Below, one piece after another: positions 1-54,608 of a stretch of 64,000 nt of DNA; the first letter of the stretch is position 1; the number at the start of each line of letters is the position of its first letter. The DNA comes from an uncultured Gammaproteobacteria bacterium (lineage in GTDB: Bacteria > Patescibacteriota > Microgenomatia > UBA12405). A program made the position numbers and the translations under genes. The notes below the pieces were generated by a model. That model worked only from the letters and a program-made list of their open reading frames with translations, was not told where the DNA came from and made no database searches. Location of the stretch: assembly GCA_964448705.1 (NCBI GenBank), contig CAYUZS010000002.1, positions 49,577-113,576 on the forward strand, written 5' to 3'.

Positions 1-691
1 CTTTACCGGTAAGATGGCCTGAAGTTAGGGCTAAAATAATCTGATCCGAATGATATGAAGAATTCTGGGGGTCGACCAGAGATTCAAAACGCTGTCGGCG
101 ATAGGGAGAAGTTAAAACCAAAATTAAACTGGCAGAAATGGCAAAAAGACATAGGACAAAAAGGGAAACAATTTCACCACCGGAGAGATAATACATGGTA
201 ATTACGGTGGCAGCAATTAAAATAGAAGTGCTTAAATTCGGTTCCAGAATGATTAACACCAGAGGAATGCCAAGATAGATGATTAAGTTTTTAATGTTGC
301 GGGAACGATCGTCAATAAATATTTTGGAAAAAAAGATAATTGCGGTCAGTTTGAATATTTCCGAAGGCTGGATGCCAAAAAAGCCGACATCAAACCAGCG
401 GCGGGCGCCGAGGACCTGATTTCCGAATTGAGGAATCAAAACGAGAATTAATAAACCTAAAGTAAGAAAATAAAATGTCTGAGAATATTTTTTAAGAAAA
501 CTAAATTTAATTTTAGCGGCGACAAAAAAAGCCGCGATGCCGACAACGGACCAAATCAATTGTTTTTTAATAAAATATAATTTGTCTCCGGCAGTGTAGA
601 CGGCTTCGGAAATAGAAGAAAGAGAAATGAAGAGCAGTCCAATCATGAGCAATAGTCCGGTAAGAAAGATCAAATTGGAATGTTTTTTCAT
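1..691 (-). CDS. ftsW: Cell-division lipid II flippase/glycosyltransferase FtsW/RodA (SEDS family), N-terminal part; the 3' end runs off the window
   Basis: Minus-strand ORF with ATG at 689-691 overlapping the stop of the upstream ATP-grasp gene (ATGA). Translation MKKHSNLIFLTGLLLMIG...GARRWFDVGFFGIQPSEIFKL... is polytopic and carries the SEDS G-x-R-R-W...QPSE signature. Not in the ORF track because no stop lies inside the window. Confidence 0.8.
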   Translation of the reverse strand, partial: MKKHSNLIFLTGLLLMIGLLFISLSSISEAVYTAGDKLYFIKKQLIWSVVGIAAFFVAAKIKFSFLKKYSQTFYFLTLGLLILVLIPQFGNQVLGARRWFDVGFFGIQPSEIFKLTAIIFFSKIFIDDRSRNIKNLIIYLGIPLVLIILEPNLSTSILIAATVITMYYLSGGEIVSLFVLCLFAISASLILVLTSPYRRQRFESLVDPQNSSYHSDQIILALTSGHLTGK

Positions 692-1797
692 AAAACGTTA
701 GCAATAACAGCGGGACTGATGGAAACAGGATCGGCAGAAGGAGAGAAGGTGGAAAACTGATGATATTTTTTTATGGTGACACCATTTGCATCTTTACGGG
801 TGATTTCCGAACCAATGAGTTGTGGATCGGTTGATCTGGAAACACCGGAGATATCGGTCGGTAAATTACAAAATTCAGACAGGTGGTAATAAAATAAAGG
901 GGTATAACCGGCATTTTTTTCTATTTCGGTATAAAAGGCAAAAGAGGCAGTAAGACGGGCGTTACATTCCAGAAGATAAACTTTGTCTTCCGAAACTAAA
1001 AAGTCTAAACCGAAAAAACCACGGAAATGTTGGGTTTTAAGGTATTCGGAAAAAGATTCAGTTAAGGCGTTGATCTGAGAAATAATTTCGGCGGGGGCCT
1101 GCGAGGGCCATTGACGGCCGACAGTAGCTAGAGGGTTGTCGGTTAATTGGGAAAGACCGGTATATTGAAGTCCAGGAGGACTGGTGATTAATCCCCTGCC
1201 GGTTAAACAGCAATTATTTATGAGTGAATAACCCGGTAAATATTTGGAAAATTTTACAATAGTACCGGGAGCGATTAACGACTGAACATCGGAAAAATCA
1301 TTTGAAAGATGGGAACTGTTTCCGGCCCAGCCGAAATGGGTTTGGATAACCAGAGGGGAGCCGAAATCCGCCATTGCCCGAGAGTAGTTTTCCTGATTGA
1401 AAGAAATAACTAAGTTAGGGATTTGGGGAAAATTTTGCTGATGACAAATTTCGACAAATTTTATTTTATCTTCGAGATAACGATTGAGAGAAGCGGGATT
1501 AGAAATTAATAGCCAATTGTTTTGAGTACAAAGGTGTTCAATTCTGGCTGAGGGTTTGAAAGGGATTATTGCCGGTTGACGACCGGTTGATTGCGAATGC
1601 TGTTTAATAAATTCAATTGTTTTTGGGTGGGAGAGCAATCTTCCGGAATTTTTTTCCGGCAAACTGATTCCAATTTTTTCCGGAGAAATAGAAATGAAAT
1701 TACTTATTTCCGGAAGACTGATATCAAGAAATTGATCGACGACCAAAAAATAAAAATCATAAGGAGCAAGATTGAGGGTTTCCAGAAGTGAGGTCAT
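688..1797 (-). CDS. ATP-grasp family ligase (RimK/LysX/Ddl-like amino-acid ligase), substrate unknown
   Basis: C-terminal ATP-grasp signature GFFGLDFLVSEDKVYLLECNARLTASF (compare Ddl [25 protein letters not shown] and the RimK LEVNSSPG block). The N-terminal ~90 aa does not look like the Ddl N-domain (no GGxSxE). Confidence 0.6.
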   Translation of the reverse strand: MTSLLETLNLAPYDFYFLVVDQFLDISLPEISNFISISPEKIGISLPEKNSGRLLSHPKTIEFIKQHSQSTGRQPAIIPFKPSARIEHLCTQNNWLLISNPASLNRYLEDKIKFVEICHQQNFPQIPNLVISFNQENYSRAMADFGSPLVIQTHFGWAGNSSHLSNDFSDVQSLIAPGTIVKFSKYLPGYSLINNCCLTGRGLITSPPGLQYTGLSQLTDNPLATVGRQWPSQAPAEIISQINALTESFSEYLKTQHFRGFFGLDFLVSEDKVYLLECNARLTASFAFYTEIEKNAGYTPLFYYHLSEFCNLPTDISGVSRSTDPQLIGSEITRKDANGVTIKKYHQFSTFSPSADPVSISPAVIANVL

Positions 1798-2600
1798 CTT
1801 TTGGTTCCGGTTAATAAAATAAGCGGATAAAGACCAGGATCATATTTTTCGAGGGCTTTTTTATATCCGGCAAAAGCCATAACACCTTCGGGAGAAGTAG
1901 AAAGATTATTAATATCAAAAAAGGCCGAAGCATCTTCAATTTGATGATTGTTGATAACAATACCTGAACCGGAGGAATTTTTGATGGCAGTAATAACTTG
2001 GGATTTTAAGGGAAGGAGTTTAACGGTTAAAGAATCGGTTAATGATTCTTTTTCCGGTTGATAATTTTGGTCGAAGAAGGAAGCGATGGGACAATTATTT
2101 GCCGGCTGAACTGCAAATATTTTAACTGAATCGGCCAGTTTTTGAGAAATACCCAAGAGGGTGGTGCCGCTACCCACCGGTATAAAAATACTGGTAACTT
2201 GAGGAAGTTGGGCCATTATTTCCGAGCCGATTTCCTGATAGCCGATTAAGGCGGCAGGATCTGTTGATTGACGTAAGAGATAACTTTGATTGGTTTTGGA
2301 AAAGCGAAAAGCTTCGGAGATCGGTTTGGGAGTGGTAAAAATTTTAGAATGTTTGATCAGAGCCAATTTTTGGGGATTAATTCCCGGAGAGACGAAGACA
2401 GTTAAAGGGATATTTTTTTGATGACAAAAATAATCTGCAGAAATAGCGGCGTTACCAGTGCTGGAAATGACGGCTGAAGAATAATTGAGTTTTTGTAACC
2501 GGTCAAGTTGGGCAGCAATTGCCCTATCTTTGGCAGAACCGGTTAGGTTTTGATCTTCTCTTTTAAAATAGACTGAATCAAATTTGACTATGGGTGTCAT
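1794..2600 (-). CDS. PLP-dependent enzyme, fold type II (tryptophan-synthase-beta superfamily; threonine synthase / cysteine synthase / serine racemase-like), short form (268 aa)
   Basis: TGSAKDRAIAAQL PLP-lysine motif (compare TGSFKDR of ThrC and relatives). Gly-rich VGSGTT loop later in the protein. 4-nt overlap with the downstream ATP-grasp gene. Confidence 0.6.
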   Translation of the reverse strand: MTPIVKFDSVYFKREDQNLTGSAKDRAIAAQLDRLQKLNYSSAVISSTGNAAISADYFCHQKNIPLTVFVSPGINPQKLALIKHSKIFTTPKPISEAFRFSKTNQSYLLRQSTDPAALIGYQEIGSEIMAQLPQVTSIFIPVGSGTTLLGISQKLADSVKIFAVQPANNCPIASFFDQNYQPEKESLTDSLTVKLLPLKSQVITAIKNSSGSGIVINNHQIEDASAFFDINNLSTSPEGVMAFAGYKKALEKYDPGLYPLILLTGTKR

Positions 2601-2638
2601 ATAATAGTATAAGGATTATATATTTATTTGGAATCAAA

Positions 2639-2806
2639 ATGAATCTAGAAGAAAATAAAATCATCTGTCCTGATTGTCAGGCGGAAATAATTAAACCTGA
2701 AACAATGGCAGTAGGCGACATTCTGGAATGCGCTGAGTGCGGTACTGAAGTGGAAATATTGTCTTTGGAACCTATTAAATACAAAGAGTTGGTTGAAGAA
2801 AAATAA
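2639..2806 (+). CDS. LysW/ArgW-like zinc-ribbon small protein (55 aa); possible amino-group carrier protein homolog
   Basis: MNLEENKIICPDCQAEIIKPETMAVGDILECAECGTEVEILSLEPIKYKELVEEK. It has the CPxC...(17 aa)...CxxCG(T/A)E(V/L)E(I/V) spacing and the hydrophobic pattern of LysW (compare Thermus CPECGAEL...CEDCGAELEVVGLDPLRLE). The ORF exactly fills the only 207-bp gap in the operon, with TATAAT at 2600-2605 and GGA 8 nt before the ATG. Its stop lies 1 nt from the convergent NlpC/P60 stop. The GTG start at 2594 given in the ORF track overlaps the PLP gene start and is unlikely. Confidence 0.45.
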   Translation: MNLEENKIICPDCQAEIIKPETMAVGDILECAECGTEVEILSLEPIKYKELVEEK

Positions 2807-2807
2807 A

Positions 2808-3356
2808 TTATTTCTGTAAATTAAGACGATAAAATCCCTGATGTGGAAATTCGGGATTGTCAATTTCAAATTTTCCCAAAACTACTCCCCTCTTTTTTTG
2901 ATTGCTTTCCAGGTATTCAACCAGATTACCGGTTTTTTTAATGACAAACAAAACATGCCGGCCGTTATTTTGACGAACCAGATCACCGGTAGTTAAAGAG
3001 TCAGAATCAACCGGCGATGATAGAGGGTATGAGGTGAGCATGTCGGCAGAAGTTTTTCGGGGATTGAGACTGGTTTTAAAATAAAAATTTAGGAGGTGAC
3101 AAACGAGTCCGGAGCAATCGATACCGAGATGATGTTTCTTTTGGAAATTGTAAATTTGTGAAGAGGAAAAATTAATTAACTTAACATTTTCGTTGTTGGC
3201 AAATTCGATTGTCTTTAAGGCAATTTCTTTGGCAGAACCTTTTCCAACTAAAGCATTTTCCCCATTATTTTTATACTTTCCCTTATTAATGAAATAGGGA
3301 ATACCAAGATAGGTGTTGATTTCTTGAAGAAGAGAATTTAATTTAGGCCTAACCAT
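2808..3356 (-). CDS. NlpC/P60-family cysteine peptidase/amidase, no signal peptide (cytoplasmic)
   Basis: Catalytic Cys in HHLGIDCSGLVCHLL and downstream His in NGRHVLFVIK, the typical NlpC/P60 Cys-His arrangement. The most plausible start is ATG at 3354-3356 (MVRPKLNSLL), overlapping the mraY 3' end by 19 nt. The N-terminus is not hydrophobic. Confidence 0.55.
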   Translation of the reverse strand: MVRPKLNSLLQEINTYLGIPYFINKGKYKNNGENALVGKGSAKEIALKTIEFANNENVKLINFSSSQIYNFQKKHHLGIDCSGLVCHLLNFYFKTSLNPRKTSADMLTSYPLSSPVDSDSLTTGDLVRQNNGRHVLFVIKKTGNLVEYLESNQKKRGVVLGKFEIDNPEFPHQGFYRLNLQK

Positions 3357-4372
3357 AGAGCAACAACTGCTAATATAATCGCCGCCAGCCAAGCCCGAAA
3401 GACGATTTTTGGTTCTTCCCAACCGATTTTTTGAAAAGTCAGATGAAGCGGTGCTGCCGGCAAAATTTTTCTTTTAAAATAGATTTTACTGAGTATTTGG
3501 ACTGCACTACTCATACCTTCAACGATAAACGGCAGTCCGACGATAAATAAAGGGACTAATTTACCTAATAAAATAGCTATTACGGCGATAGTGGCCCCAA
3601 AAGAAAGTGAGCCGACGTCACCAAGCCAGATACGGGCCGGATAAATATTAAAGTAAAGGAAAGCAATTAAAGCCCCCAACCATAAAGCAAGAAATAGAGA
3701 AATGGGAGTGTCTAAAGAATGGTTGGACAAAAACCAAAAAGCGAATAGAGCGATCATTAATAAACCACAGGAAAGTCCATCCAAACCATCGGTAATATTG
3801 AAAAAGTTAGCAAAGCCGACGATGATGGCTGTATACAAAGGTACAGAAAACCAACCCAAATTAACCGGCCCCAAGAAGGGAATGTAGACAAAATTAATTC
3901 CTAATTGAAAGACAGCATAAATGGAAATAAACAAAGCCAAAACAATCTGAAGAATAAGTTTGTGAACCATGCGAAGACCGAAAAACCCGGTTTTTGAAAA
4001 ACCAAAAAACTTTAAAATATCGTCGTATAGTCCCAGTAAAGCAAATCCGATAAAAGTGAAAAAGATGACGATAATTTCCTGATCGATTCGGTAGTTGCTG
4101 GAGATAAAAATGTTGGAAAAATGAAGCAAGGGAAAGAGGGATAAAAACAGAACAGTTACTGTAACAATGATCAAAAGACCGCCGCCGACCGGGGTGCCTG
4201 ATTTTTGACTATGAAAACGATCAAAAATTGGGGTGCGTTTGTTTTGAAAATCGAGGGTTTTTTGATTTTGACGCTGAAATTTTAGTTTATAGAGAAGATT
4301 GATAAAAGGAACAACAAGAATGCTGTTGGTGAGAAAGGAGAATAATAGTAAACCTAGATATAAATGGATCAC
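3338..4372 (-). CDS. mraY: Phospho-N-acetylmuramoyl-pentapeptide transferase MraY
   Basis: Polytopic membrane protein with KSGTPVGGG and NITDGLDGLSCG (DGLDGL) signatures of MraY/WecA-family polyprenyl-phosphate sugar-phosphate transferases. Sits in a dcw context. Confidence 0.9.
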   Translation of the reverse strand: MIHLYLGLLLFSFLTNSILVVPFINLLYKLKFQRQNQKTLDFQNKRTPIFDRFHSQKSGTPVGGGLLIIVTVTVLFLSLFPLLHFSNIFISSNYRIDQEIIVIFFTFIGFALLGLYDDILKFFGFSKTGFFGLRMVHKLILQIVLALFISIYAVFQLGINFVYIPFLGPVNLGWFSVPLYTAIIVGFANFFNITDGLDGLSCGLLMIALFAFWFLSNHSLDTPISLFLALWLGALIAFLYFNIYPARIWLGDVGSLSFGATIAVIAILLGKLVPLFIVGLPFIVEGMSSAVQILSKIYFKRKILPAAPLHLTFQKIGWEEPKIVFRAWLAAIILAVVALWLGLN

Positions 4373-4378
4373 TTTAGA

Positions 4379-5659
4379 TTAGATTATAAACTGTTTTAAA
4401 TTATTAAGTCCATCGAGACCTCCGGAACTAAAATGAATCAAGAGATCTCCCGGCTTTAGATTAGCGGAAAGATAGGTGAAGATATCGTCTTCAATCGGTA
4501 AATATTTCATTTTTTCACCGAGAACTTTTTGCCAATTAGCAGCTGTTACCCGATCATTTTTACCTGTATTGGCGGAAAAATGAATTTTTGAAAGGATAAA
4601 TTCATGACACATATTCTTGATTTGAGAAAAATCGTTAAGACTTTTTTGATTTTGAAGAAATTTGGCATGAGGCTCGAAATAGACAAAAATCCGACGTTTT
4701 GGATAAGCTTGTTGAAGTGCGGTGAGGGCTGAATAGACCCGGGAACCGGACTGAGCAAAATCGTCATAGATTAAAATATTGTTTTTGGAAGAAATTTTTT
4801 CCAGACGTCGTTTTAATCCGGGAAAAGTAGCGATATATTTTAAAATAATAGTACTTTTTAGGCCTAATTGATGACAAAAAGTATAAGCAGCGGCAATATT
4901 TTGCTGATTATATTGACCGATAAGTTTGGATTTGAAAACTTTGTCTATTTGATAATCAAAGGTCGGGGCCTTGCTTTCAGAAATAATCTTTTTTATTTCA
5001 CTGTCCTGTCCGTTATAAACAATAAATCCGTTTTCGGGTACATTTTTAATTAATTGCCGAAAGGCTTCAAAATTTTTTTCGGAGGTGGAATAAGATTCTT
5101 TATGTTCCCATTGAGCACTGGTGAGGATTAAATATTTGACAGGATAATAGAGAAATTTTGCTTTGGTATCCAGCCCGTTGATGGATTCATCGGCTTCAAC
5201 TACAGACCAGTTTGAAGTGGTGGAATTGATGGAAGGAGAATGATTAACAAGCTGGCCGCCAAAAAAATAATTTGGATGGTAGCCGGATTTATCCATAATC
5301 CAGGAAACAAGGGCGGTGATAGTGCTTTTGCCGTATGATCCGGCGACTAAAATAGAGTTTCCCCTAATTAAACTTTTAGCGATGAATTCAGTGGCGGTGG
5401 TGTAGGGAATATTAAGTTTTTTTATTTGTTCCCATTCTTCGACACATTTAGAAAAAGACAAAAAAGATGAACCAACAATGACGGCATCAATATGGGTGTT
5501 AATAGGAGTTTTATTCAACGGAATATCGGCGATAAGTTGACTGATGGGAGGATAGATTTTATCTTGGTCTGAACCGGTGACCTCGTGACCCTGCTGTTTT
5601 AAAATCATGGCAATTTGAGCTGTCATGACTCCGGCGATACCAAGAATATGAATATGCAT
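4379..5659 (-). CDS. Mur ligase family protein, Mpl/MurC-like (UDP-N-acetylmuramate:peptide or L-Ala ligase)
   Basis: N-terminus MHIHILGIAGVMTAQIAMILKQQGHEVTGSD closely resembles the Mpl/MurC Rossmann N-domain (E. coli Mpl MRIHILGICGTFMGGLAMLARQLGHEVTGSD as recalled). P-loop VAGSYGKSTIT. 426 aa. Confidence 0.7.
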   Translation of the reverse strand: MHIHILGIAGVMTAQIAMILKQQGHEVTGSDQDKIYPPISQLIADIPLNKTPINTHIDAVIVGSSFLSFSKCVEEWEQIKKLNIPYTTATEFIAKSLIRGNSILVAGSYGKSTITALVSWIMDKSGYHPNYFFGGQLVNHSPSINSTTSNWSVVEADESINGLDTKAKFLYYPVKYLILTSAQWEHKESYSTSEKNFEAFRQLIKNVPENGFIVYNGQDSEIKKIISESKAPTFDYQIDKVFKSKLIGQYNQQNIAAAYTFCHQLGLKSTIILKYIATFPGLKRRLEKISSKNNILIYDDFAQSGSRVYSALTALQQAYPKRRIFVYFEPHAKFLQNQKSLNDFSQIKNMCHEFILSKIHFSANTGKNDRVTAANWQKVLGEKMKYLPIEDDIFTYLSANLKPGDLLIHFSSGGLDGLNNLKQFII

Positions 5660-5664
5660 ATTTA

Positions 5665-6261
5665 TCAGTGATTAATATAGGGAACCCAAGAATTATTATA
5701 ATAGTATTCAAAACCAGGAAAACTGCGTTTGTAAAATCCTAATTTAGTCTCCGGATTAAATCTGCCTAAATAAGTGTATTTTAGCTGTTGTTCGTGGGAA
5801 TCGATGACAACCTGTAATGGACAGCGAATAGGGAGATCCTGATGAGAATATTTAGGATCGTAAAATAGGTAGGCGACATGGGAAATTGTCGGGGAAAAAT
5901 AACAAACGGCATAGGCGGCGACAACATCATGGTCGTAAAAAATATAAAGTCGATTGAAGATATGGTCGGTGAAAACTTTTTTTATGGAACTGGTGGGAAA
6001 ATCCCAGTTTAATTCCTTTACCCAATCATGAATTTGTTTTTGGAGCTTTGGGGTGTAAACAAAATCGGAAAGATTAACTGTTTTGTAAGTGATGTTTTCA
6101 GTTTTTTTTAAAATACGACGATTTTCGGAATTTAAGACAAAATTTTCCAAATTAGAACGACAGCTGCTTTCCTGATAAAAAATATTCTTTTCGTTGCGTT
6201 GAGGCAAAAGACCAAGATCGTAATTTTCTTCGATAGTAAGTTCGTTTTTAATGTTAAACAT
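5665..6261 (-). CDS. Hypothetical protein with Bpt/ATE-C-like (aminoacyl-tRNA--protein transferase family, GNAT fold) motifs
   Basis: HVAYLFYDPKY and KYTYLGRFNPE resemble the two conserved blocks of bacterial Bpt / eukaryotic ATE1 C-domain (recalled as ..SAVYTFYDP.. and ..YLYLGYWI..). 198 aa. 8-nt overlap with upstream murE-like gene. Low-confidence family call. Confidence 0.35.
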   Translation of the reverse strand: MFNIKNELTIEENYDLGLLPQRNEKNIFYQESSCRSNLENFVLNSENRRILKKTENITYKTVNLSDFVYTPKLQKQIHDWVKELNWDFPTSSIKKVFTDHIFNRLYIFYDHDVVAAYAVCYFSPTISHVAYLFYDPKYSHQDLPIRCPLQVVIDSHEQQLKYTYLGRFNPETKLGFYKRSFPGFEYYYNNSWVPYINH

Positions 6262-7522
6262 GCTGTTTTCTTAATCTAAAAGCGGATCTAAAAGCTTCGG
6301 ATTCGGACCAGGGATATTCAGTTTTACCATGAAGAATGGTAGTTTCGTGACCTTTACCGCAGGCGATTATAGTATCGCCCGGAGAGGCAAGTTTAACAGC
6401 TAAATTAAAAGCATCCTGACGATTGGGAATATCGTAATAAACGAAAGATTTATTTTGGAGACGATCCGGATCTATACCTTCAATTATCTGTGAATTAATA
6501 TCTTCAACTTTTTCATTACGGGTATCATCGGCGGTAATAATAGCAATGTCAGCTATTTTTGACACCTCGTAACCCATAATCGGGCGTTTGCTTTGGTCGC
6601 GGCCGCCGGTAGCGCCGAAAATAACAATCAACTTACCTGAAGTAATCTGACGAAGTGAAGAAAGGGTGTTTTTTAAGGCATTTGGAGTGTGGGCAAAATC
6701 GACGATAGTCCGAAAACGAAAACGATTGGAGACCTCTTCCCGGCGACCTTTAATTTCCGGAAAATGACGAATAGTGTTAATTAAAATTTGGGGATCAAAT
6801 TTTAACCAATTTAAAATTCCGTAGGCAGTCAAAATATTATAAATTTGATAACGATAGTTACTGTCGGTTTTGAAAGTTAATCCATTGACCGAAAAAGAAA
6901 GAAGGTCTGATTTATCGGAAATATTTTTAGCCTGATAATCGGATTTTTTTTCGATACTATAGGTGGTAAAAGGAACTTTAAGAGCAGGACTGATTTGAGA
7001 AAAAGTAGAATCATCTTTATTTAGAACAGCATAGCGGCACTTTTTAAAAATGAGACTTTTAGTGGAAACATAGTCGTCCATATCTAAAAAATCATCAAGG
7101 TGTTCATGAGAGGTATTGGTGATAGCGGCGACTTTAAAATTACAGCCATAAAATCGAAATTGGTCCAAGGCATGAGCAGTAACTTCGATAACGACGTGAG
7201 TAACTCCCTGATCTACCATCTGACGCAGTAAAAACTGAACTTTTGAGGAATCGGGAGAAGTGGTGTGGAGACCGATAGTTGATTCCTGGGTACCGATTTT
7301 AGAGCCGACAGTACTGATGAGTCCTGCCTTAATACCGGCGTTTAGTAAACATTGGTGAATAAGAACTGAGGTGGTGGTTTTACCATCAGTTCCGGTGATA
7401 CCAATGATAATCAGTTTCCGGGAAGGAAAGCGATAATAAAAGTTATAATACAAACTTTTGGGAAAATGCCAAAGAATATTTTTTATTTTCTGTTTAACTC
7501 TTTTTAATTTACGCTTAAACAT
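6254..7522 (-). CDS. murE: Mur ligase, MurE-like (UDP-MurNAc-L-Ala-D-Glu:diamino-acid ligase family) with a truncated N-terminal domain
   Basis: P-loop IIGITGTDGKTTT and C-terminal ITADDTRNEKVEDI (MurE DNPR(S/N)E-like block). Only ~37 aa precede the P-loop, versus ~100 in canonical MurE. Position after ftsI is as in dcw clusters. Confidence 0.65.
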   Translation of the reverse strand: MFKRKLKRVKQKIKNILWHFPKSLYYNFYYRFPSRKLIIIGITGTDGKTTTSVLIHQCLLNAGIKAGLISTVGSKIGTQESTIGLHTTSPDSSKVQFLLRQMVDQGVTHVVIEVTAHALDQFRFYGCNFKVAAITNTSHEHLDDFLDMDDYVSTKSLIFKKCRYAVLNKDDSTFSQISPALKVPFTTYSIEKKSDYQAKNISDKSDLLSFSVNGLTFKTDSNYRYQIYNILTAYGILNWLKFDPQILINTIRHFPEIKGRREEVSNRFRFRTIVDFAHTPNALKNTLSSLRQITSGKLIVIFGATGGRDQSKRPIMGYEVSKIADIAIITADDTRNEKVEDINSQIIEGIDPDRLQNKSFVYYDIPNRQDAFNLAVKLASPGDTIIACGKGHETTILHGKTEYPWSESEAFRSAFRLRKQHV

Positions 7523-7535
7523 AGGTTCATTTGAA

Positions 7536-9179
7536 TTATAACAGAGGAGTGATTTTAGAGGCTAATTCAAACCATATCGGAGCGGCGGTGCTTGAACCCC
7601 AAGGTGAACTTTTGGGATTGTTGATAGTGACAATCATAGTAAATTTGGGATTTTGACAAGGACTAAAACCGACATAAGAAGCATTGGTAAAAGATTCGGA
7701 ATAGCCGCCGGTGACAGCAACCTGAGCGGTACCGCTTTTGGCACAAACTTCAAGATCTTTTGGTCTAAATTGGTTAACGACACCGTTTTCAACGGCGTAT
7801 TTAAGAATTTCTTTAATGGTGTCAGTTGTAGACTTCTTGAATACTTCCGAAGGTTGGGGTAAATTATTGTTTATGATTTGGCTGCGGTCTTCAAAGTATT
7901 CAACTAAATGCGGCTGGGACATTAAGCCATCATTGGCCAAAGTATTGAAAGCCTGAAGCATTTGAATTTGAGTGACAGCAAAACCCTGGCCAAAAGAAGC
8001 GGTAGCCAAATCAATTTCCGGCCAAACGGTTTTTTCCAACGGTTTAACTTCTCCCTGAAGATCGATTCCGGTTTTTCGATTTAGACCAAGCGATTGGAAA
8101 TATTGTTGAAAAGTATTTAAACCAAGAGTTTCGATAATATAGCTCATGCCGATGTTGTCGGAATTTTTGATGATATCCTGAAGAGATGAATCGGGATGAT
8201 ACGAATTGTCCCAGTTTCCGATGGAATATTGGCCAATTTGATGGGGTTGATTACATTTAGTACAAACATAATCGGTAGAGATAGTCCGACTATTAAGAGC
8301 CATAGAGACAACCAGTGGTTTAAAAATTGAACCAGGCTCAAAAAGATCGGCAATTATCGGGTTTTTATACATAGCACTGGGAGTGGCGGAAGATGTGGCG
8401 ACAAAGCTGGCCATGGCAATTATGCCTCCGGTTTGGGGATTCATGATGGTAATCGAGCCGGAGTCGGCGTCGTATTTTTTTAGGCCTTCGGATAGAGAAT
8501 TTTCAGCAAGATACTGGATCTGACGATTCAAAGAAATATGTAAATTTCTCCCATCCTGAGGTTCAATATACCACCCCGGTTTATTCAAAACGGTTTGTCC
8601 GGTGGCGTCAATCCCCTGCCAGGAAAAACCATCACGACCGGAAAGTTGTTTTTGATAATAGCCTTCGATACCGCCAAGAGTTTTTGAGCCAAGGATAAGA
8701 GAGCCTAAATTTTTTTCCGGATAATAACGGGAATTAATTGAAGAAAAAGTTATCCCGGGATCTTTTAAAGAGTTTTTTTCTTCATAAGAAAAATTATCTT
8801 TTAAGGTTAACCATTTCTGATTAGGATTTAGAAGAAATTTATTCAATTGTTCCAAGTCTTCAGTAGAAATTTGAGGATGGACATGTTGAATTAAATTAAC
8901 GATTTCTTCGGGTTTTGTTTTAAGATCCGGCTTGTATAGCGAAAGCTGATAAAAAGTTTGATTAATGGATAAAGGAAAACCTGAAGCATCGTAAATTTTT
9001 CCAAACTGAGGCAAAACAACATTTGGCTTATAACTTTGATTGATAATTTTTTGGCTGAATTCCGGATTTTTGATTATCTGCCAGTAGAACAACCTACCGA
9101 TGACGATAAAATAACAAAAAATTAAGGTGAAGGTGACGATTTTTAAACGTTGAGAAAACATTTTAGTTAAGATTAACAA
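7536..9179 (-). CDS. ftsI: Class B penicillin-binding protein / peptidoglycan D,D-transpeptidase FtsI
   Basis: N-terminal TM, then SxxK (PGSIFKP), SxN-like and KSGTA motifs of PBP transpeptidase. Position between ftsL-like and murE. Confidence 0.85.
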   Translation of the reverse strand: MLILTKMFSQRLKIVTFTLIFCYFIVIGRLFYWQIIKNPEFSQKIINQSYKPNVVLPQFGKIYDASGFPLSINQTFYQLSLYKPDLKTKPEEIVNLIQHVHPQISTEDLEQLNKFLLNPNQKWLTLKDNFSYEEKNSLKDPGITFSSINSRYYPEKNLGSLILGSKTLGGIEGYYQKQLSGRDGFSWQGIDATGQTVLNKPGWYIEPQDGRNLHISLNRQIQYLAENSLSEGLKKYDADSGSITIMNPQTGGIIAMASFVATSSATPSAMYKNPIIADLFEPGSIFKPLVVSMALNSRTISTDYVCTKCNQPHQIGQYSIGNWDNSYHPDSSLQDIIKNSDNIGMSYIIETLGLNTFQQYFQSLGLNRKTGIDLQGEVKPLEKTVWPEIDLATASFGQGFAVTQIQMLQAFNTLANDGLMSQPHLVEYFEDRSQIINNNLPQPSEVFKKSTTDTIKEILKYAVENGVVNQFRPKDLEVCAKSGTAQVAVTGGYSESFTNASYVGFSPCQNPKFTMIVTINNPKSSPWGSSTAAPIWFELASKITPLL

Positions 9180-9417
9180 CAGTGTTAACAGGAGTATAAT
9201 TTTTTCCTTCGGTTTGAGAAAAAAGAGTGGAAAGAGAGTTAAGTTCGGAAAGATTTATTTCCAACTGCTGATTGATAATTGTGGCCTGAGTAAGATTCTG
9301 ATTAGAAACATTGGCCAACTGACTTAGATCAACAACCTTAATAGAGTAGATGATGGAAAAAATTACCTGAAGACAAAAGGAAAAGGCAGCCAATATGGTC
9401 AATGGTTTAAGACTCAT
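9163..9417 (-). CDS. FtsL-like small bitopic cell-division protein
   Basis: 84 aa with one N-terminal TM followed by a heptad-like Leu/Asn-rich stretch. Sits between rsmH and ftsI as ftsL does in dcw clusters. No sequence-level proof. Confidence 0.4.
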   Translation of the reverse strand: MSLKPLTILAAFSFCLQVIFSIIYSIKVVDLSQLANVSNQNLTQATIINQQLEINLSELNSLSTLFSQTEGKNYTPVNTVVNLN

Positions 9418-10286
9418 TAATCTATTCTATATGATCTGAGGACTGATGATCGAGATAAAGGATTATTTTTTATTTCAGAAAAAGACGGCAGAATGGCTTT
9501 GGTATTTGAGGCGGGAAAATGCTGACGAATAAATTGTTTAACCAGACGGTCTTCACCGGAATGAAAGGAAATAACAGCTACAACACAACCGGGAGAAAAT
9601 TTTAAAGTGGCCTGAAGAGCATTTTTTAGATTAGCAAATTCGTCGTTAACCGCGATTCTGAGGGCCATAAAAACTTTGGTAGCCGGATCTATTTTACTAT
9701 GGATGTGTTTTTCCTGGTAGTATTTACGGATAATGTCAGCTAATCTTTTTGCCGATTTTATCGGTTTATATTGTCTTTCTGAAATAATCCTGATGACAAG
9801 CGGTTTACTGAATTTTTCCTGGGCTAATTTGGAAAAAATATCATATAACTGCTGAAAGTCGTAAGTGTTGATAATTTCTTCAGCAGTAACAGTTTGAGTT
9901 TCTGGATCAAGCCTCATATCCAGTGAATCCGGATCGTTAAAAGAAAAACCACGACCGACACTTTTTTGCTGTCCGGAACTTAGTCCAAGATCAAAAAGAA
10001 TACCGTCAATTTTTGCCGGTATTTGATGACCAATAAGATTTTCCAATTGATTAAAATTAAAATGAAGAGGAATAAACTTTTGGGAAAGACCTAAATCGGA
10101 AATTCTTTGTTGAGCGATCGCCAAATTTACAGGATCCTGATCCAGTCCATAGACAATGCCGCCATGATTGATTATTTCCAGGGAATGACCACCATTTCCG
10201 GCTGTAGCATCGACATAAATACCACCGGGAACGACGTTAAGAACCTTAATTACTTCGTTTACCAGTACCGGTTGATGAAACTCCAT
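9417..10286 (-). CDS. rsmH: 16S rRNA (cytosine1402-N4)-methyltransferase RsmH/MraW
   Basis: MEFHQPVLVNEVIKVL...GIYVDATAGNGGHS is the characteristic RsmH N-terminus and SAM-binding motif. Confidence 0.9.
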   Translation of the reverse strand: MEFHQPVLVNEVIKVLNVVPGGIYVDATAGNGGHSLEIINHGGIVYGLDQDPVNLAIAQQRISDLGLSQKFIPLHFNFNQLENLIGHQIPAKIDGILFDLGLSSGQQKSVGRGFSFNDPDSLDMRLDPETQTVTAEEIINTYDFQQLYDIFSKLAQEKFSKPLVIRIISERQYKPIKSAKRLADIIRKYYQEKHIHSKIDPATKVFMALRIAVNDEFANLKNALQATLKFSPGCVVAVISFHSGEDRLVKQFIRQHFPASNTKAILPSFSEIKNNPLSRSSVLRSYRID

Positions 10287-12239: not shown

Positions 12240-12404
12240 GGTCTCTAAAGTATTAATTAAATAATAACATTAGAGGTCCCTTCAGAGTATTTAGGGAGGT
12301 TCCACCTCAATTGCCAAACTATGATTATCCAATCAGTTTGACCACTTATTCAACCTGCTCCGGGGAGCCAATCCCCCATCACTGCAGAATAGCAAATTAT
12401 AGCA
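12240..12404 (-). promoter_or_regulatory. Candidate promoter (extended -10 TGCTATAAT at 12396-12404) plus T-box-like leader upstream of glyS
   Basis: On the minus strand the leader contains AATTGAGGTGGAACC (12298-12313), versus the T-box consensus AATTAGGGTGGTACC. Its UGGA bulge would pair with the ACCA end and U73 discriminator of tRNA-Gly. A GC-rich hairpin GGGGGAUUGGCUCCCC with GGC (Gly codon) in the loop lies upstream. This is the only ~185-nt non-coding stretch in this part of the window. No convincing terminator/antiterminator alternative was resolved by eye. Confidence 0.35.
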
Positions 12405-12421
12405 TACGAAAATAGTTCAAG

Positions 12422-12745
12422 TTATTTTTCACCACTTTTGAAGTAATAGCCAATAACAAAACCAAGAGAAGAGCCAACAATAGAACCAATTATTGAGAGT
12501 ATATCTTTTAAATCAATTAGTAGTTCGTTATTTTTAATGGTATTGTAGATTAAATAATTGTATGTTGGTATGAGAATAACAACAAGACCTATCAGTATGA
12601 AGAAACCCCATACGAAAACATTAGCAATTCTTGCCCTTTGATGATCAATATGTTCTTTTGGATTATATCTAGCTGGTTTGAGGTTGCTTTCAATAGTACT
12701 TTGTAATTTTGCAAAAGACTCTTGAAGATTTGTTTCTCTATTCAT
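12422..12745 (-). CDS. Small membrane protein (2 predicted TM), unknown function
   Basis: 107 aa, AT-rich relative to its neighbours. 4-nt overlap with the upstream 80-aa ORF. Hydrophobic segments FVWGFFILIGLVVILIP and IIGSIVGSSLGFVIGYYF. Confidence 0.3.
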   Translation of the reverse strand: MNRETNLQESFAKLQSTIESNLKPARYNPKEHIDHQRARIANVFVWGFFILIGLVVILIPTYNYLIYNTIKNNELLIDLKDILSIIGSIVGSSLGFVIGYYFKSGEK

Positions 12746-12984
12746 TGTTCGAGAAATTCTTTAGATAGTTCAACATAGCTATTTACTAGAGTTTCTGTCT
12801 TCTTTAGGATAATTTCGATATTTTGTTGCATTTTTTCGATCTCATCTTTTAGTTTTTGGTCTTGTATAGATATAGCTGATTTTTTTAAGAGAGCATATTG
12901 AATAGCAAGTTCTTGGAGTGCTTCAACATTTTCTTTAAGAGCAGAGTTAACTTGATTACTTTTATCGACTATCTGTTGGTTCAT
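12742..12984 (-). CDS. Small coiled-coil protein, unknown function
   Basis: 80 aa with heptad-like charged/hydrophobic periodicity (..LKENVEALQELAIQYALLKK..IEKMQQNIEIILKK..). Translationally coupled to the next ORF. Confidence 0.3.
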   Translation of the reverse strand: MNQQIVDKSNQVNSALKENVEALQELAIQYALLKKSAISIQDQKLKDEIEKMQQNIEIILKKTETLVNSYVELSKEFLEQ

Positions 12985-13011
12985 CTATCGATATTATAAC
13001 GGATTAATAAA

Positions 13012-13572
13012 TTATCGGAAGAGTTTGTCGCTTTGGAGCGGTTTTTCAATGATAGATTCCAAATGCCGTTTAAGAATTTTTTGAGCGGTGATATAGTCCT
13101 GCTGTTGATAGGCTTGGGTAACAGTTTCCGGTAAACCAAAACCAAGAAAATTAATAAACTCCATCTCGTACTTGATGAATTGGGATAATTGATTGAGGTT
13201 AATCGAAGTAATTAATTTTTCTGAAATTTGGTAAATGCCGGGAATATTTTGATTTTCAGCAATAAAATAATTGATTATTTCAAGAACGTAAAATAATAGG
13301 TTAAGCTGAGTTAAGGATTTTTGGTGATGAAGAAATTGAGAAACAGAAATTGATTCTGATAACCATAAAAAATCATTTTTTTGATAAAGATGAGCTTTAA
13401 TGATATTCCCCAACTGAAGTGTGCCCAGACGACTGCTTTTGATATTTTTAGCACCTTTGGCCAGAACAACAATTTTACCCAGTTCCGGAGTCAGCAGAGT
13501 AACAAAAATATCTGTTTCCCGATAAACTTTGGTTTTAACAACAATTCCGAGTGTATTTTGAAATTTTGGCAT
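13012..13572 (-). CDS. recO: DNA repair protein RecO (short form)
   Basis: N-terminal OB-fold pattern GIVVKTKVYRETDIFVTLLTPELGKIVVLAKGAKN typical of RecO. 186 aa. 1-nt overlap with upstream DUF4012 gene. Confidence 0.5.
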   Translation of the reverse strand: MPKFQNTLGIVVKTKVYRETDIFVTLLTPELGKIVVLAKGAKNIKSSRLGTLQLGNIIKAHLYQKNDFLWLSESISVSQFLHHQKSLTQLNLLFYVLEIINYFIAENQNIPGIYQISEKLITSINLNQLSQFIKYEMEFINFLGFGLPETVTQAYQQQDYITAQKILKRHLESIIEKPLQSDKLFR

Positions 13573-15530
13573 TAAAGAGAAAGTTTGACGGTTTTATCAC
13601 CAGTCCAAGTGAAACTTTCTTCAAGTTTACCATTTACCCAAAGATCATAGGGAATATCTTTAGTACCCGGTTGTTTTTGGAGCAACAAAGTATAGTTGGC
13701 ATTAGCGGGGACACTGGAAACATATTGTACAGATGTTTTGGCGCTGGATTGGGCATAAAGTGGATATTTATTTCCGTAAAATCCTTCAAAAACCTGCTTA
13801 CCAAGTTCTTCATAAACAACGGGTTCGACTTCGGAGCCAGTCATTTTTACCAGTTTTGAACCGGTGGGAACATAGAATCTAAACCAATCGCGATATTTGG
13901 GAGCATTAAGACATAGTCCGCCTGTTTCCAAATTACAGTTGCTGGCCTTAAAAGGATTAGTGTAGGTGACGGTGACTTTATGCTCTACCTGTCCGTTATT
14001 GGCGATGATTTCGTGTTTTATTTTTTGAGTGAGAAAAATATTAGTTTTAGCACTGGCGAAATTGGCATCATTAAGATGAAGATAATCAATAGAATTGTCG
14101 GTCTGGGTGATGCTGCCGGCAATACCTGCAGTGACGGCGGCTTTTTGGATTTCCGGATCAGTAAAGTAAAAAACAACGTGTTTTTTCATGATATCGTTAA
14201 ATCCGGTTTCGACCAGAGATCCGATTTTATTCTTTTCGGCACCAAGGACATTAGAAAGAATAGTGTGAATTAACGGACCAAGGAATCCTTTACGATTATT
14301 ATCGATATAGTTACGGGGCTGACCAGCCTCCCACTCTATCTGGTAAATAATTTGAGGACAACCATTACATCTTTTATCGGGATCAGCAGAAACATTTCCT
14401 AAAGTGCCGGCACCAACCCGACCTATTACTTTGAGAAGATCGACAAGAACCTGGGTGTCGATACCAATGACAGCATCAAATTTAGTTTTAGTTTTAGTAA
14501 TTTTGTAATAGGTATCCATAAAAGGTTCGATACTGGTGGGGAAATCAGGAGACAAATTCATGTCTCTAAGATTGTAGTAAGGAACATTAAGATGGTAGGC
14601 TTTTAACGGCCGGGGAGCCGGGACAGTGCTGCTGTACATAGCGTCGAGATCATAGATATTGCCGGAAGCACCGGGAGTAATCTTACCTTTATTAATAGTC
14701 ATAGTGCCATAAGCTGTCCAGAAACCACCGGTGGGACGAAGCTCAGCATCGTTTTGAAAAATCAAGAAATAGGTTCTGGGGCCATCTTTACCGAGAAACC
14801 ATGAGAGTTTAGAGAGAATCGGCTGACCGTTTTTAGTGAGTTGATGAATATCAGCGACGGTTTGTTTGGCTAAATTGATATTTGATTTAATAATCATGCC
14901 GTTAAATTCATCCGGATAACGTGATGAATCAATTTGATCAAATTCTGTTTCGATTTCGGCAAGTTTGGCTTCAATAGTACTAAGATGAGGAATAATTCCT
15001 TCCACAGATTCGGTTAAAAAGTCCAATCTATCCTGAGTAGTGGTGGCACTGTCGGTAGCAGAACCGGCTAATCCCAAGAAATCCTGATAAGGCTCGACGG
15101 CAGTAATGACAATTTGACCGGTTTCCAGACCTAGTTTTCCAATATTAACTAAATGATTACCATCAGAATAATAATCTTTTAGATAAGGTAATACCTTCAT
15201 GTAGGAAAACTTTTGATAGGACGACTGAAGTTGAGAAAGTTTTGACTGAAGATCGCTAACCTGGACTTTGGCATCTTTAAGATCTTTGTTGGCGACGGCG
15301 CTTTTAAGTTTATTGACACCTTCCTGAAGTGAAGTGGCTTGAGAGTAGATTTTTTGACCGGGAAGATAAACCAAGAAGAAACCGCTGATACCAAAAATGC
15401 CGATAATAATTAACAAAACCAAAAAGATTCTGGAAATAACTTTCAGAAACTTAGGTGTTTTTTTCTTACCACCGGTAACAGTAATTTTTTTTTCGGAGGC
15501 AGGTTTAGAAATAGACGGAACATCAATCAT
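13572..15530 (-). CDS. DUF4012-family membrane-anchored protein (cell-envelope associated, function unknown)
   Basis: N-terminal TM, long coiled-coil region, then FQNDAELRPTGGFWTAYG (DUF4012 N-x-A-E-x-R-x-x-GG motif). Confidence 0.5.
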   Translation of the reverse strand: MIDVPSISKPASEKKITVTGGKKKTPKFLKVISRIFLVLLIIIGIFGISGFFLVYLPGQKIYSQATSLQEGVNKLKSAVANKDLKDAKVQVSDLQSKLSQLQSSYQKFSYMKVLPYLKDYYSDGNHLVNIGKLGLETGQIVITAVEPYQDFLGLAGSATDSATTTQDRLDFLTESVEGIIPHLSTIEAKLAEIETEFDQIDSSRYPDEFNGMIIKSNINLAKQTVADIHQLTKNGQPILSKLSWFLGKDGPRTYFLIFQNDAELRPTGGFWTAYGTMTINKGKITPGASGNIYDLDAMYSSTVPAPRPLKAYHLNVPYYNLRDMNLSPDFPTSIEPFMDTYYKITKTKTKFDAVIGIDTQVLVDLLKVIGRVGAGTLGNVSADPDKRCNGCPQIIYQIEWEAGQPRNYIDNNRKGFLGPLIHTILSNVLGAEKNKIGSLVETGFNDIMKKHVVFYFTDPEIQKAAVTAGIAGSITQTDNSIDYLHLNDANFASAKTNIFLTQKIKHEIIANNGQVEHKVTVTYTNPFKASNCNLETGGLCLNAPKYRDWFRFYVPTGSKLVKMTGSEVEPVVYEELGKQVFEGFYGNKYPLYAQSSAKTSVQYVSSVPANANYTLLLQKQPGTKDIPYDLWVNGKLEESFTWTGDKTVKLSL

Positions 15531-52449: not shown

Positions 52450-53182
52450 GTTTTATCTTGCTGTACTTAGAAATGACCTTAGCCGGTTCACCATCAGAAA
52501 TGATTTTTGAATGATTAAGATAGATAACCCTGGTGCAGAAATCTTCGACTTGTTTTAAATTGTGGGAGACAAAAAGGATAGTGACATTTTGGTCCTTTTT
52601 AAACTCCTCCATTTTCCGGAAACATTTGTCCTGGAAGGCAGTGTCGCCGACAGCTAATATTTCATCAACAATAAGGATTTCCGGTCTAACGTGAATAGCA
52701 ATGGAAAAACCGAGACGCATATACATACCGGAAGAATAATGTTTTACCGGCTGATTAATAAAATCCTCTAACTCGGCGAATTTGATAATATCGTCCAACT
52801 GTCGCTCGATTTCTTTTCTTTTTAATCCCAGAATGGCGCCGTTGAGATAAATGTTTTCCCGGCCGGTTAGTTCGGGGTGAAAACCAGCACCTAGTTCGAT
52901 TAAGGGAGAAACTTTACCTTCGACGGTTACTTTACCTCGGGAGGGAGACATAACACCGGCGACCAGCTTGAGTATAGTGGATTTACCTGAACCGTTGGGG
53001 CCTATAATTCCAACCACCTCCCCTTTCTTGATTTCAAATGAAATATCGGAAAGAGCGGTGAAATTATTTTTGGTTTGTTCACCCATAAACAATGCCGGCA
53101 AAAATTCTTTAAAAGTCTTTTGATTTTGAAGACTAAAATTTTTGGTAACGTGTTGGAATTTTATAACGGTGTTGTTTGACAT
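52442..53182 (-). CDS. ABC transporter ATP-binding protein, Wzt/TagH-like (polysaccharide export), short form
   Basis: Walker A GPNGSGKST, signature-like YSSGMYMRLGFSIA and Walker B ILIVDE. Confidence 0.85.
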   Translation of the reverse strand: MSNNTVIKFQHVTKNFSLQNQKTFKEFLPALFMGEQTKNNFTALSDISFEIKKGEVVGIIGPNGSGKSTILKLVAGVMSPSRGKVTVEGKVSPLIELGAGFHPELTGRENIYLNGAILGLKRKEIERQLDDIIKFAELEDFINQPVKHYSSGMYMRLGFSIAIHVRPEILIVDEILAVGDTAFQDKCFRKMEEFKKDQNVTILFVSHNLKQVEDFCTRVIYLNHSKIISDGEPAKVISKYSKIKHD

Positions 53183-53229
53183 GATTTGGTTTATTTTATA
53201 TAATAACTCATCACGATGACTGGACTAGC

Positions 53230-53760: not shown

Positions 53761-53761
53761 T

Positions 53762-54562: not shown

Positions 54563-54608
54563 ATGGTTATTATACATATTTTGGGAAGTGGTATGATATT
54601 GAAAAGAG

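Follow-up and report, generated by a model that had tools for sequence, protein, structure and literature searches.

A conserved LysW-like zinc-ribbon gene and three enzyme genes in the cell-wall gene cluster of Patescibacteria: a possible carrier-protein cassette for peptidoglycan precursors

We analysed a 64-kb stretch of DNA (contig CAYUZS010000002.1; hereafter the window) with a G+C content of 36%, whose proteins have homologs named Candidatus Shapirobacteria, Woesebacteria and Microgenomates; by these names the DNA comes from a member of the Patescibacteria. A division and cell wall (dcw) gene cluster runs along its minus strand from position 9179 down to 1. Between mraY and ftsW, this cluster carries genes for an NlpC/P60-like cysteine peptidase, a fold-type-II pyridoxal 5'-phosphate (PLP) enzyme and an ATP-grasp ligase. 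A 55-codon open reading frame (ORF) between the first two, the sole plus-strand gene within the dcw stretch, encodes a mini-protein with the zinc-ribbon fold of LysW. All four ORFs had been picked out in an initial annotation made from the sequence, and were confirmed here (Table 1). The four genes occur together across several lineages of the Candidate Phyla Radiation (CPR, Patescibacteria), and we consider below the possibility that they act as a carrier-protein cassette in peptidoglycan-precursor synthesis.

The mini-protein matched the Pfam domain Zn_ribbon_LysW (PF21344) with 35.4 bits (gathering score 27, E = 8e-9) and aligned to LysW in the PDB (3wwl, E = 5.5e-6, and 5k2m). On the other hand, its scores were below the equivalog cut-offs of TIGR01206 (31.6 bits versus 53.2) and NF041070 (30 versus 75). 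A word-indexed search gave 160 homologs, with identities of 64-100% among those listed. The four Cys residues C10, C13, C31 and C34 are invariant among the homologs. The tail, ELVEEK in the window and ...EL[VI]EEK in the family, ends in EEK in 119 of the 120 homologs listed, and it stays fixed while the N-terminus varies. The initial annotation had proposed a LysW-like zinc ribbon with a non-canonical terminal Lys, and these results agree with that proposal. Codon-position entropies of 0.77, 0.56 and 1.36 bits in 73 orthologous genes indicate that the mini-gene is a translated frame, and this pattern together with the conservation rules out a chance antisense ORF. The mini-gene is opposite in strand to both of its neighbors in all of 76 related loci. 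The isoelectric point (pI) of its product is about 4.1-4.2, the rest of the proteome being mostly basic; as the proteome as a whole is basic, overall charge says nothing about carrier binding. No hydrophobic stretch resembling a signal sequence or a membrane span is present in the four cassette proteins, whose highest Kyte-Doolittle value is 1.13 (2.62 for MraY).

When 1.8 billion representatives were searched exhaustively with HMMER, the Lys-ending LysW-like ribbons proved to be a broad family; the canonical LysW proteins found in this search end in EDWGE. Among the top 150 matches, 52 proteins of at most 110 residues end in K with the consensus [LIV]-E-E-E-K, and 16 have canonical LysW-type tails, 13 of these being EDWGE. 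By source name, the Lys-tailed members come from Gottesmanbacteria, candidate division CPR2 and other Patescibacteria, where the ribbon gene always pairs, on the opposite strand, with genes for the orthologous PLP enzyme and ATP-grasp ligase. In databases the ribbon is named 'lysine biosynthesis protein LysW', and the other proteins 'ATP-grasp domain-containing protein', 'hypothetical protein' and 'NlpC/P60 family protein'. Judged from its sequence, the mini-protein has the fold of LysW but does not qualify as LysW by its tail, its partner ligase, its pathway neighbors or its equivalog score, and hundreds of CPR entries under the LysW name are very probably mis-named, skewing metabolic reconstructions. 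We also found tandem ribbons, in which two to three LysW-like units share a single EEEK end (P0369, 103 residues, and other HMMER matches of 100-200 residues), and a few very long proteins (807 and 1126 residues) holding seven to nine ribbon-like repeats.

The block is not limited to one genome but is widespread in CPR bacteria. In a Shapirobacteria-type set of 80 species-representative genomes, the order FtsW, ATP-grasp ligase, PLP enzyme, LysW-like protein (other strand), NlpC, MraY, (MurA), MurC, ATE_C-like protein, MurE, FtsI is essentially invariant. All four cassette genes are present in 56 of the 56 species loci long enough to judge, in line with the earlier view of them as a possible module within the dcw cluster. 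A wider set of 80 metagenome loci was collected with a divergent ATP-grasp query (25-32% identity), and 37 of these have at least 6 kb on the relevant side. The PLP enzyme and the LysW-like gene were each found in 37/37, and the NlpC-like gene in 34/37. The ribbon gene of the wider loci is on the opposite strand in 66/66 cases, and its product ends in EEEK or xEEK in 61/66. The four-gene block is thus a genuine evolutionary unit. Many of the contigs bearing it have been deposited as 'uncultured Gammaproteobacteria bacterium' (for example loci L009, L018 and L023), evidently an artefact of labelling in the submitter's pipeline.

The block occurs in distinct architectures. Architecture A has the order NlpC, MurD, LysW-like protein, PLP enzyme, ATP-grasp ligase; CPR2 (L097) and Gottesmanbacteria (L095) carry it as a separate unit, and in L089 and L096 its place is between mraY and ftsW. 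Its Mur ligase is of MurD type by TIGR01087 (184-261 bits; three of the five examples exceed the 212-bit cut-off). Architecture B1 has the order MurC, MurB, MurA, (Ddl), MurF, MraY, NlpC, LysW-like protein, PLP enzyme, ATP-grasp ligase, FtsW, MurG, with a true Ddl in L104 (326 bits) and MurF in L104 and L116 (234-243 bits). Architecture B2 is the Shapirobacteria form, as in the window. No murD was seen within 8-10 kb on either side of the match in B1 and B2, and here the block physically occupies the murD slot. In the Shapirobacteria-type dcw cluster, a MurD-, MurF- or Ddl-type gene was found in 0 of 56 loci (L009-L088, and positions 1-9200 of the window). The initial placement of the block in the murD slot is therefore correct for these two forms, but the cassette is not a general MurD substitute; we rejected it as a MurD replacement everywhere because in CPR2, Gottesmanbacteria and other loci the cassette itself contains a gene for a MurD-type ligase. 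MurD is in fact the tightest extra partner of the cassette and travels with it outside the dcw cluster. The MurC-type ligase of the window stands at the canonical murF position. Since it is an orthologue (E = 3.9e-58) of the MurC that coexists with MurD in L096, we rejected it as a relocated MurD or Mpl; an Mpl-like activity is possible. Two individual loci deserve mention. In L096, an Amidohydro_3 protein (D-aminoacylase/dipeptidase superfamily; 12347-13921, minus strand) and a 376-residue protein lie between MraY and the NlpC-MurD-LysW-like-PLP-ATP-grasp block. In L129, a MurC-type ligase of 699 residues (3726-5822, plus strand) has about 250 extra C-terminal residues, and the cassette there is without a recognisable NlpC gene.

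Table 1. Genes and spacer of the dcw cluster in the window, listed from its upstream to its downstream end.
Feature	Position	Strand	Basis or remark
FtsI	7536-9179	-	dcw cluster
MurE lacking the N-terminal domain	6254-7522	-	TIGR01085, 323 bits (cut-off 257)
ATE_C-like (arginyl/leucyl-tRNA-protein-transferase-like) protein, 198 aa	5665-6261	-	PF04377, 27.9 bits; arginyltransferase models, about 34 bits
MurC-type ligase	4379-5659	-	TIGR01082, 202 bits; Mpl, 167 bits
MraY, upstream border of the cassette	3338-4372	-	TIGR00445, 158.6 bits; PF00953
NlpC/P60 (C40)-like cysteine peptidase/amidase, 182 aa	2808-3356	-	Predicted fold; extra N-terminal helical region
LysW-like zinc-ribbon mini-protein, 55 codons and stop	2639-2806	+	PF21344; proposed carrier or adaptor
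Divergent spacer between PLP enzyme and LysW-like starts, 38 nt	2601-2638	.	Read from the sequence
Fold-type-II PLP enzyme, 268 aa	1794-2600	-	PF00291, 126.8 bits
ATP-grasp amide ligase of a distinct family, 369 aa	688-1797	-	Fold comparison
FtsW, 5' part, downstream border; gene continues past the window edge	1-691	-	Sequence; PF01098 (FTSW_RODA_SPOVE) at the equivalent place in L002/L003

The genes of the block are tightly packed. The overlaps of mraY and nlpC (19 nt), of the PLP enzyme and ATP-grasp genes (4 nt, ATGA) and of the ATP-grasp gene and ftsW (ATGA at 688-691, the FtsW ATG at 689-691 sharing bases with the ATP-grasp stop codon) are compatible with translational coupling. The coupling suggested earlier for all three enzyme genes fits at these junctions. 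The NlpC and PLP enzyme genes are separated by a gap of 207 nt (2601-2807). The small ORF had been said to fill this gap exactly. The length of the gap was correct, and as 38 nt upstream of the ORF and 1 nt downstream remain uncovered, the statement was nearly right. The divergent spacer of 38 nt between the PLP enzyme and LysW-like genes is too small for two separate promoters, so that sense and antisense transcription must overlap; in relatives the spacer measures 17-43 nt. A scan of positions 500-4600 for consensus promoters and terminators gave counts no higher than in shuffled sequence, that is, at chance level, and an Rfam search of positions 1-10000 gave no known RNA. At its other end, the LysW-like gene invariably converges on its upstream neighbor, NlpC or MurD (junction 2804-2810 in the window). 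Many relatives show an overlap of 17-50 nt between the 3' ends of these genes, most commonly of 18 nt (for example, L003 10137-10168 and L005 10136-10153). The obligatory overlap of sense and antisense transcripts predicted from the gene layout is kept across phyla. A TTG start at 3422 would lengthen the NlpC protein, public assemblies calling 3356. In near-identical contigs, FtsW is followed by MurG, a 125-residue protein, FtsA and FtsZ.

The primary structure of the ATP-grasp ligase gave little indication of its function, with weak generic matches and 80 bits to the 'biotin carboxylase' model NF005096/PRK06524, and a profile search of the PDB gave marginal matches only. A confident AlphaFold model was obtained from 32 orthologues (predicted local distance difference test score 94.5). 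The closest folds are biotin carboxylase, an ATP-grasp peptide ligase, BesA, PurK, PGM1 and L-amino-acid ligases. Identity to BesA, PGM1 and L-amino-acid ligases is 9-16%, and no solved enzyme exceeds 16%. Comparison with other folds gave values of about 18 for Ddl, 16.1 for ArgX, 15.5 for RimK and 13.7 for LysX. The three-domain ATP-grasp fold with its Mg/ATP-binding motifs is present, and E-x-N-x-R and GLDF are invariant. Profiles and fold comparison agree that the enzyme is not of the LysX/ArgX (RimK) clade, and no match to the Ddl profiles PF07478 and TIGR01205 was found. In L104 a true Ddl (TIGR01205, 325.7 bits; cut-off 245.65) is encoded some 3 kb away from the cassette, with MurF also beside it. 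With a true Ddl present alongside it in related loci, the ligase is not a Ddl surrogate, and we rejected a divergent Ddl. On its predicted fold, the enzyme is best taken as an amide ligase of its own family, of neither LysX/RimK nor Ddl type. The nearest annotated relatives outside CPR bacteria are PRK06524-type 'biotin carboxylases' with 22-27% identity, on plasmids of Rhizobium leguminosarum (L098, NZ_CP071402.1) and Chondrinema litorale (L099, NZ_CP111049.1). Their neighbors are large fold-I PLP enzymes, an APC permease and a C45 peptidase, another trio of ligase, PLP enzyme and peptidase.

The PLP enzyme has a clear PALP domain (cut-off of PF00291, 35 bits), with the lysine motif FKREDQNLTGSAKDR (TGSAKDR). 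K24, the STGN loop (S46-N50) and the GSGT loop (G143-T147) are invariant or nearly so. The best NCBIfam match, the archaeal-type ThrC model PRK08329, scored 81.7 bits versus a cut-off of 358, and TIGR00260 22.1 versus 167. With scores so far below the equivalog cut-offs, the enzyme is judged not to be a housekeeping threonine or cysteine synthase. The family profile matched TdcB, ThrC and racemases in the PDB with E values of about 1e-12 to 1e-14, and is roughly equally distant from threonine synthase, Ser/Thr dehydratase, serine/aspartate racemase, SbnA and CysK.

The NlpC/P60 protein is more divergent, scoring 20.3-20.6 bits against PF00877 (gathering score 23), with 21 of 31 orthologues matching at E < 0.01. 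The protein at the equivalent position in L096 scored 54.7 bits to NlpC/P60. A single-sequence PDB search gave noise only and a profile search marginal NlpC/P60 matches; the papain-like alpha+beta fold was assigned by structure prediction. C81, in DCSGL, and H134 are invariant, and the third polar residue, near position 150, is D, H or E. The closest structural relatives are peptidoglycan stem-peptide amidases, including gamma-D-Glu-diamino-acid endopeptidases. As no hydrophobic signal-like or membrane segment is present, we conclude that the peptidase is cytoplasmic. All three cassette enzymes look catalytically intact from their conserved residues. In summary of the sequence evidence, a LysW-family match and conserved synteny were found for the small ORF, and the ligase proved no ordinary Ddl and the PLP enzyme no housekeeping synthase; each of these outcomes is the opposite of one that had been named as refuting the initial annotation.

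Taking these results together, we tentatively favour, at somewhat less than an even chance, the reading that the four genes are one functional CPR cassette serving peptidoglycan-precursor synthesis, with a carrier-protein cycle of loading, modification and release for a stem-peptide residue. The acidic LysW-fold mini-protein would be the carrier, its flexible C-terminal ...EEK tail providing a covalent handle. The ATP-grasp ligase would use ATP to couple an amino acid to the tail through an amide bond, and the PLP enzyme would alter the tethered amino acid at its free alpha end, by racemisation or by beta/gamma-replacement. The cytoplasmic NlpC/P60 cysteine amidase would then cleave the amide, and a Mur ligase would take up the freed product. 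A PLP enzyme requires a free alpha-amine, which excludes a link of the LysW type, where the alpha-amine of the substrate is acylated by the carrier Glu, and the Lys at the end of the tail hints at another kind of handle. A tether through the side chain agrees best with the specificities known. The most economical version of the cycle, and the tether we prefer, would join the gamma-carboxyl group of Glu (or the beta-carboxyl group of Asp) to the epsilon-amine of the terminal Lys55. Alternatively, the Lys epsilon-amine might be the nucleophile in a beta/gamma-replacement, or the encoded Lys might be a cap. Once it was removed, a diamino acid (for instance lanthionine or diaminopimelate, DAP) would be built on the newly exposed Glu end, which resembles that of LysW.

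As MurD is a recurrent neighbor, D-Glu is the leading candidate for the product. L-Glu, or another residue of the stem peptide, would be tethered and inverted to the D-form (D-Glu) by the PLP enzyme, and an NlpC/P60 enzyme specific for gamma-D-glutamyl bonds would release the D-form only, for use by MurD. Such an ATP-driven, one-way racemisation on a carrier, feeding MurD, would be a hitherto unknown route to the D-amino acid of the wall, and in lineages like that of the window, whose clusters lack murD, murF and ddl, the cassette would belong to a re-wired stem-peptide assembly line. Taken with all its particulars, this version is rather unlikely.

Several observations are in favour of a carrier role. 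The linkage is tight and ancient, as seen in the complete sets of PLP enzyme and LysW-like genes, the near-complete set of NlpC-like genes and the free-standing occurrence with murD in CPR2 and Gottesmanbacteria. The LysW-domain match, the acidic pI in a basic proteome and the fixed tail beside a variable N-terminus are carrier-like traits, as far as the sequence can suggest. The predicted ATP-grasp fold is nearest to enzymes that ligate amino acids or peptides, and the closest structural relatives of the NlpC/P60 protein are stem-peptide amidases, yet it bears no export signal. In several lineages, moreover, the NlpC and LysW-like genes flank one for a MurD-type ligase. Some points weigh against the proposed cycle. 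Covalent loading, the attachment site, the substrate and the order of steps are all features that we infer, and the link to D-Glu is drawn solely from gene neighborhood. The ligase lies outside the LysX/RimK clade known to load LysW, and to our knowledge a terminal Lys as handle is without precedent among amino-group carrier proteins. Being always on the opposite strand, the carrier gene is not co-transcribed with the enzyme genes. The PLP enzyme is equidistant from synthases, dehydratases and racemases, so that its reaction is not readable from homology, and in the alignment it has Thr, like ThrC, at the position of the second base of serine racemase.

The strongest rival, which we consider possible though distinctly doubtful, is a pair of racemase and ligase. 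The PLP enzyme would make a free D-amino acid, which the ATP-grasp ligase would join to a soluble substrate or a UDP-MurNAc-peptide, as a side-chain branch on Lys3 (as with RacD/Asl(fm)) or in a dipeptide (as with Alr/Ddl or VanT/VanC). The NlpC/P60 enzyme would trim or recycle stem peptides like YkfC, and the ribbon would be a non-covalent accessory, regulating or scaffolding, with its ...E-K end mimicking gamma-D-Glu-L-Lys. Pairs of racemase and ATP-grasp ligase for the D-amino acids of peptidoglycan are established (PMC4155827, PMC8788868). The single-sequence PDB matches of the PLP enzyme start with serine racemase, its profile also finds aspartate racemase (5ybw), and the ligase is nearer to enzymes acting on free amino acids than to those modifying proteins. 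However, this rival leaves unaccounted for a LysW-fold protein with a fixed terminal EEK that is present in every locus (37/37, 56/56) and kept across CPR phyla. Canonical Ddl coexists, so that the ligase is not the D-Ala-D-Ala enzyme, and NlpC/P60 is inherited with the other three (34/37, 56/56) more strictly than one would expect of a general recycling enzyme.

It is improbable, in our estimation, that the genes provide a reversible C-terminal modification cycle of a small regulator, comparable to the detyrosination and tyrosination of tubulin (...EEY) or to RimK and S6. The NlpC/P60 enzyme would strip the terminal Lys and the ATP-grasp ligase re-add an amino acid to ...EE, the state of the tail signalling precursor supply to the division and wall machinery; such a scheme has little likelihood, even though separate expression of the mini-gene from the opposite strand would suit a regulator. 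NlpC/P60 enzymes and tubulin carboxypeptidases do share a papain-like fold, which can be counted for it, but the scheme gives no role to the ever-present PLP enzyme, and the mini-protein has no evident DNA-binding or partner domain.

A small-molecule pathway, for a secondary metabolite or antimetabolite built on a peptide scaffold of the Streptomyces carrier or 'pearlin' type, with the dcw location coincidental, is still less probable. LysW-type carriers do serve secondary metabolism (PMC11726168), and the ATP-grasp homologs on the Rhizobium and Chondrinema plasmids adjoin PLP enzymes and a C45 peptidase in contexts unrelated to the cell wall. Against this, CPR genomes are minimal (PMC6744442), the cassette lies mostly between mraY and ftsW or with murD among cell-envelope genes, and it appears translationally coupled to ftsW. 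Canonical LysW-dependent biosynthesis of lysine (via alpha-aminoadipate) or arginine, which is what the homolog names at NCBI and JGI would imply and for which the Pfam domain match backs the fold, is extremely unlikely and was ruled out on the tail (EEK, not EDWGE), the partner ligase (no LysX/ArgX type), the neighbors and the equivalog scores; LysZ, LysY, LysJ and LysK were found neither among the called genes of the loci inspected nor in the window as scanned to about 54.7 kb.

The proposed load-modify-release cycle was compared with known systems. The LysW/ArgW carriers of Thermus, Sulfolobus and Thermococcus, and their relatives in Streptomyces secondary metabolism, are likewise acidic four-Cys zinc ribbons of about 55 residues with a flexible acidic tail. 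Their genes also stand beside those for an ATP-grasp ligase, a PLP enzyme and a hydrolase, following the same logic of loading, modification and release (LysX, LysZ/Y/J, LysK). They differ from the cassette in ending in EDWGE rather than EEK and in having a LysX/RimK-type ligase, a fold-I instead of a fold-II PLP enzyme, the M20 enzyme LysK in place of NlpC/P60, and a kinase and reductase that have no counterpart here. The cassette also lies in a CPR cell-wall cluster, and protection of the alpha-amine is impossible in it.

In the MetO/MetM/Mec system, a fold-II PLP enzyme (MetM, ThrC-like) works on the C-terminus of a carrier and a protease then frees the amino acid. In CysO/CysM/Mec a fold-II PLP enzyme likewise acts on a small carrier, followed by a releasing protease, with MoeZ acting before. 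Both resemble the proposed cycle in that the product stays on the carrier until released by the protease and in that an ATP-dependent enzyme prepares the carrier terminus. They rely, however, on a beta-grasp carrier of the ThiS/MoaD type with a GG-thiocarboxylate, an E1-like activator and a JAMM metalloprotease, and yield Cys and homocysteine, whereas the cassette has a zinc ribbon ending in Lys, an ATP-grasp ligase and NlpC/P60.

Among cell-wall systems, MurD2/MurL of Xanthomonas and some Actinobacteria provides an ATP-driven, one-way conversion of the precursor Glu from L to D where MurI is absent. Here too an accessory ATP-dependent system stands beside a MurD-type ligase and supplies D-Glu without a glutamate racemase, a likeness that for the cassette is only proposed. 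MurL, in contrast, needs neither PLP nor a carrier protein and epimerises a residue already attached to the precursor, and the proteins are not homologous. In Alr/Ddl, VanT/VanC and RacD/Asl (D-aspartate ligase), a PLP enzyme and an ATP-grasp ligase are encoded together for a D-amino-acid part of peptidoglycan, and Asl acylates the Lys epsilon-amine. These systems have neither a carrier nor a dedicated cytoplasmic NlpC/P60 enzyme, their racemases are of fold III or cofactor-independent, and in relatives the cassette occurs alongside a true Ddl.

As for the single enzymes, BesA, PGM1 and the L-amino-acid ligases, the closest solved ATP-grasp folds at the low identities given above, are none of them known to use a zinc-ribbon protein. 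BesA activates the gamma-carboxyl group of Glu, PGM1 acts on ribosomal peptides, and PylC acylates the epsilon-amine of Lys. YkfC (cytoplasmic; a gamma-D-Glu-diamino-acid endopeptidase) and MepS (periplasmic; a DD-endopeptidase/LD-carboxypeptidase) share with the cassette NlpC/P60 protein the fold, the Cys-His pair and a relation to the amide bonds of the stem peptide. Unlike them, the cassette protein has a conserved N-terminal helical region of about 70 residues, has no SH3b domain or export signal, and is obligately linked to the LysW-like protein, PLP enzyme and ATP-grasp ligase.

The literature searched gave no description of the cassette or of EEK-tailed LysW-like proteins, which agrees with the initial impression that this co-occurrence in a dcw cluster had not been reported. 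Peptidoglycan precursor synthesis is well charted and a prime antibiotic target, and a conserved four-gene cassette nevertheless sits within its core cluster across several CPR lineages. If the carrier working that we infer is correct, the cassette would extend carrier-protein-assisted amino-acid metabolism, taking a chemistry used for lysine and arginine (LysW) and for cysteine and methionine (CysO, MetO) to the building blocks of the cell wall, with a C-terminal Lys as a new handle. It could also explain the supply of D- or non-proteinogenic residues in organisms with almost no amino-acid metabolism, and would provide a lineage-specific target and a marker for CPR cell walls. Should both the Lys handle and the cell-wall role be confirmed, there is a realistic chance that the system is more than a variant of known carrier proteins.

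Some further features of the window and related loci were observed. MurE lacks the N-terminal UDP-binding domain, its alignment starting at about model position 75-95, and reads DDTR at the DAP-motif site; the counterpart in E. coli MurE is the DAP-specifying motif DNPR. MurF of related lineages is also shortened at the N-terminus, starting at about model position 60 (L104, 3742-4995; L116, 3768-5021). The ATE_C-like protein, encoded between MurE and MurC in a gene overlapping both, is found in 55 of the 56 Shapirobacteria-type loci and is specific to that cluster type. It may be a Fem/MurM-like, aminoacyl-tRNA-dependent enzyme adding a branch, or something new in the dcw cluster. Farther along the window, the ORFs scanned include, between 15560 and 52449, a large cell-envelope polysaccharide region, with more than 15 glycosyltransferases, a sugar-phosphate transferase, a nucleotidyl transferase, an epimerase, Wzy-like and flippase-like proteins, methyltransferases and an asparagine synthase. 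This region is followed at 52442-54670 by an ABC exporter pair split by an NYN-domain gene.

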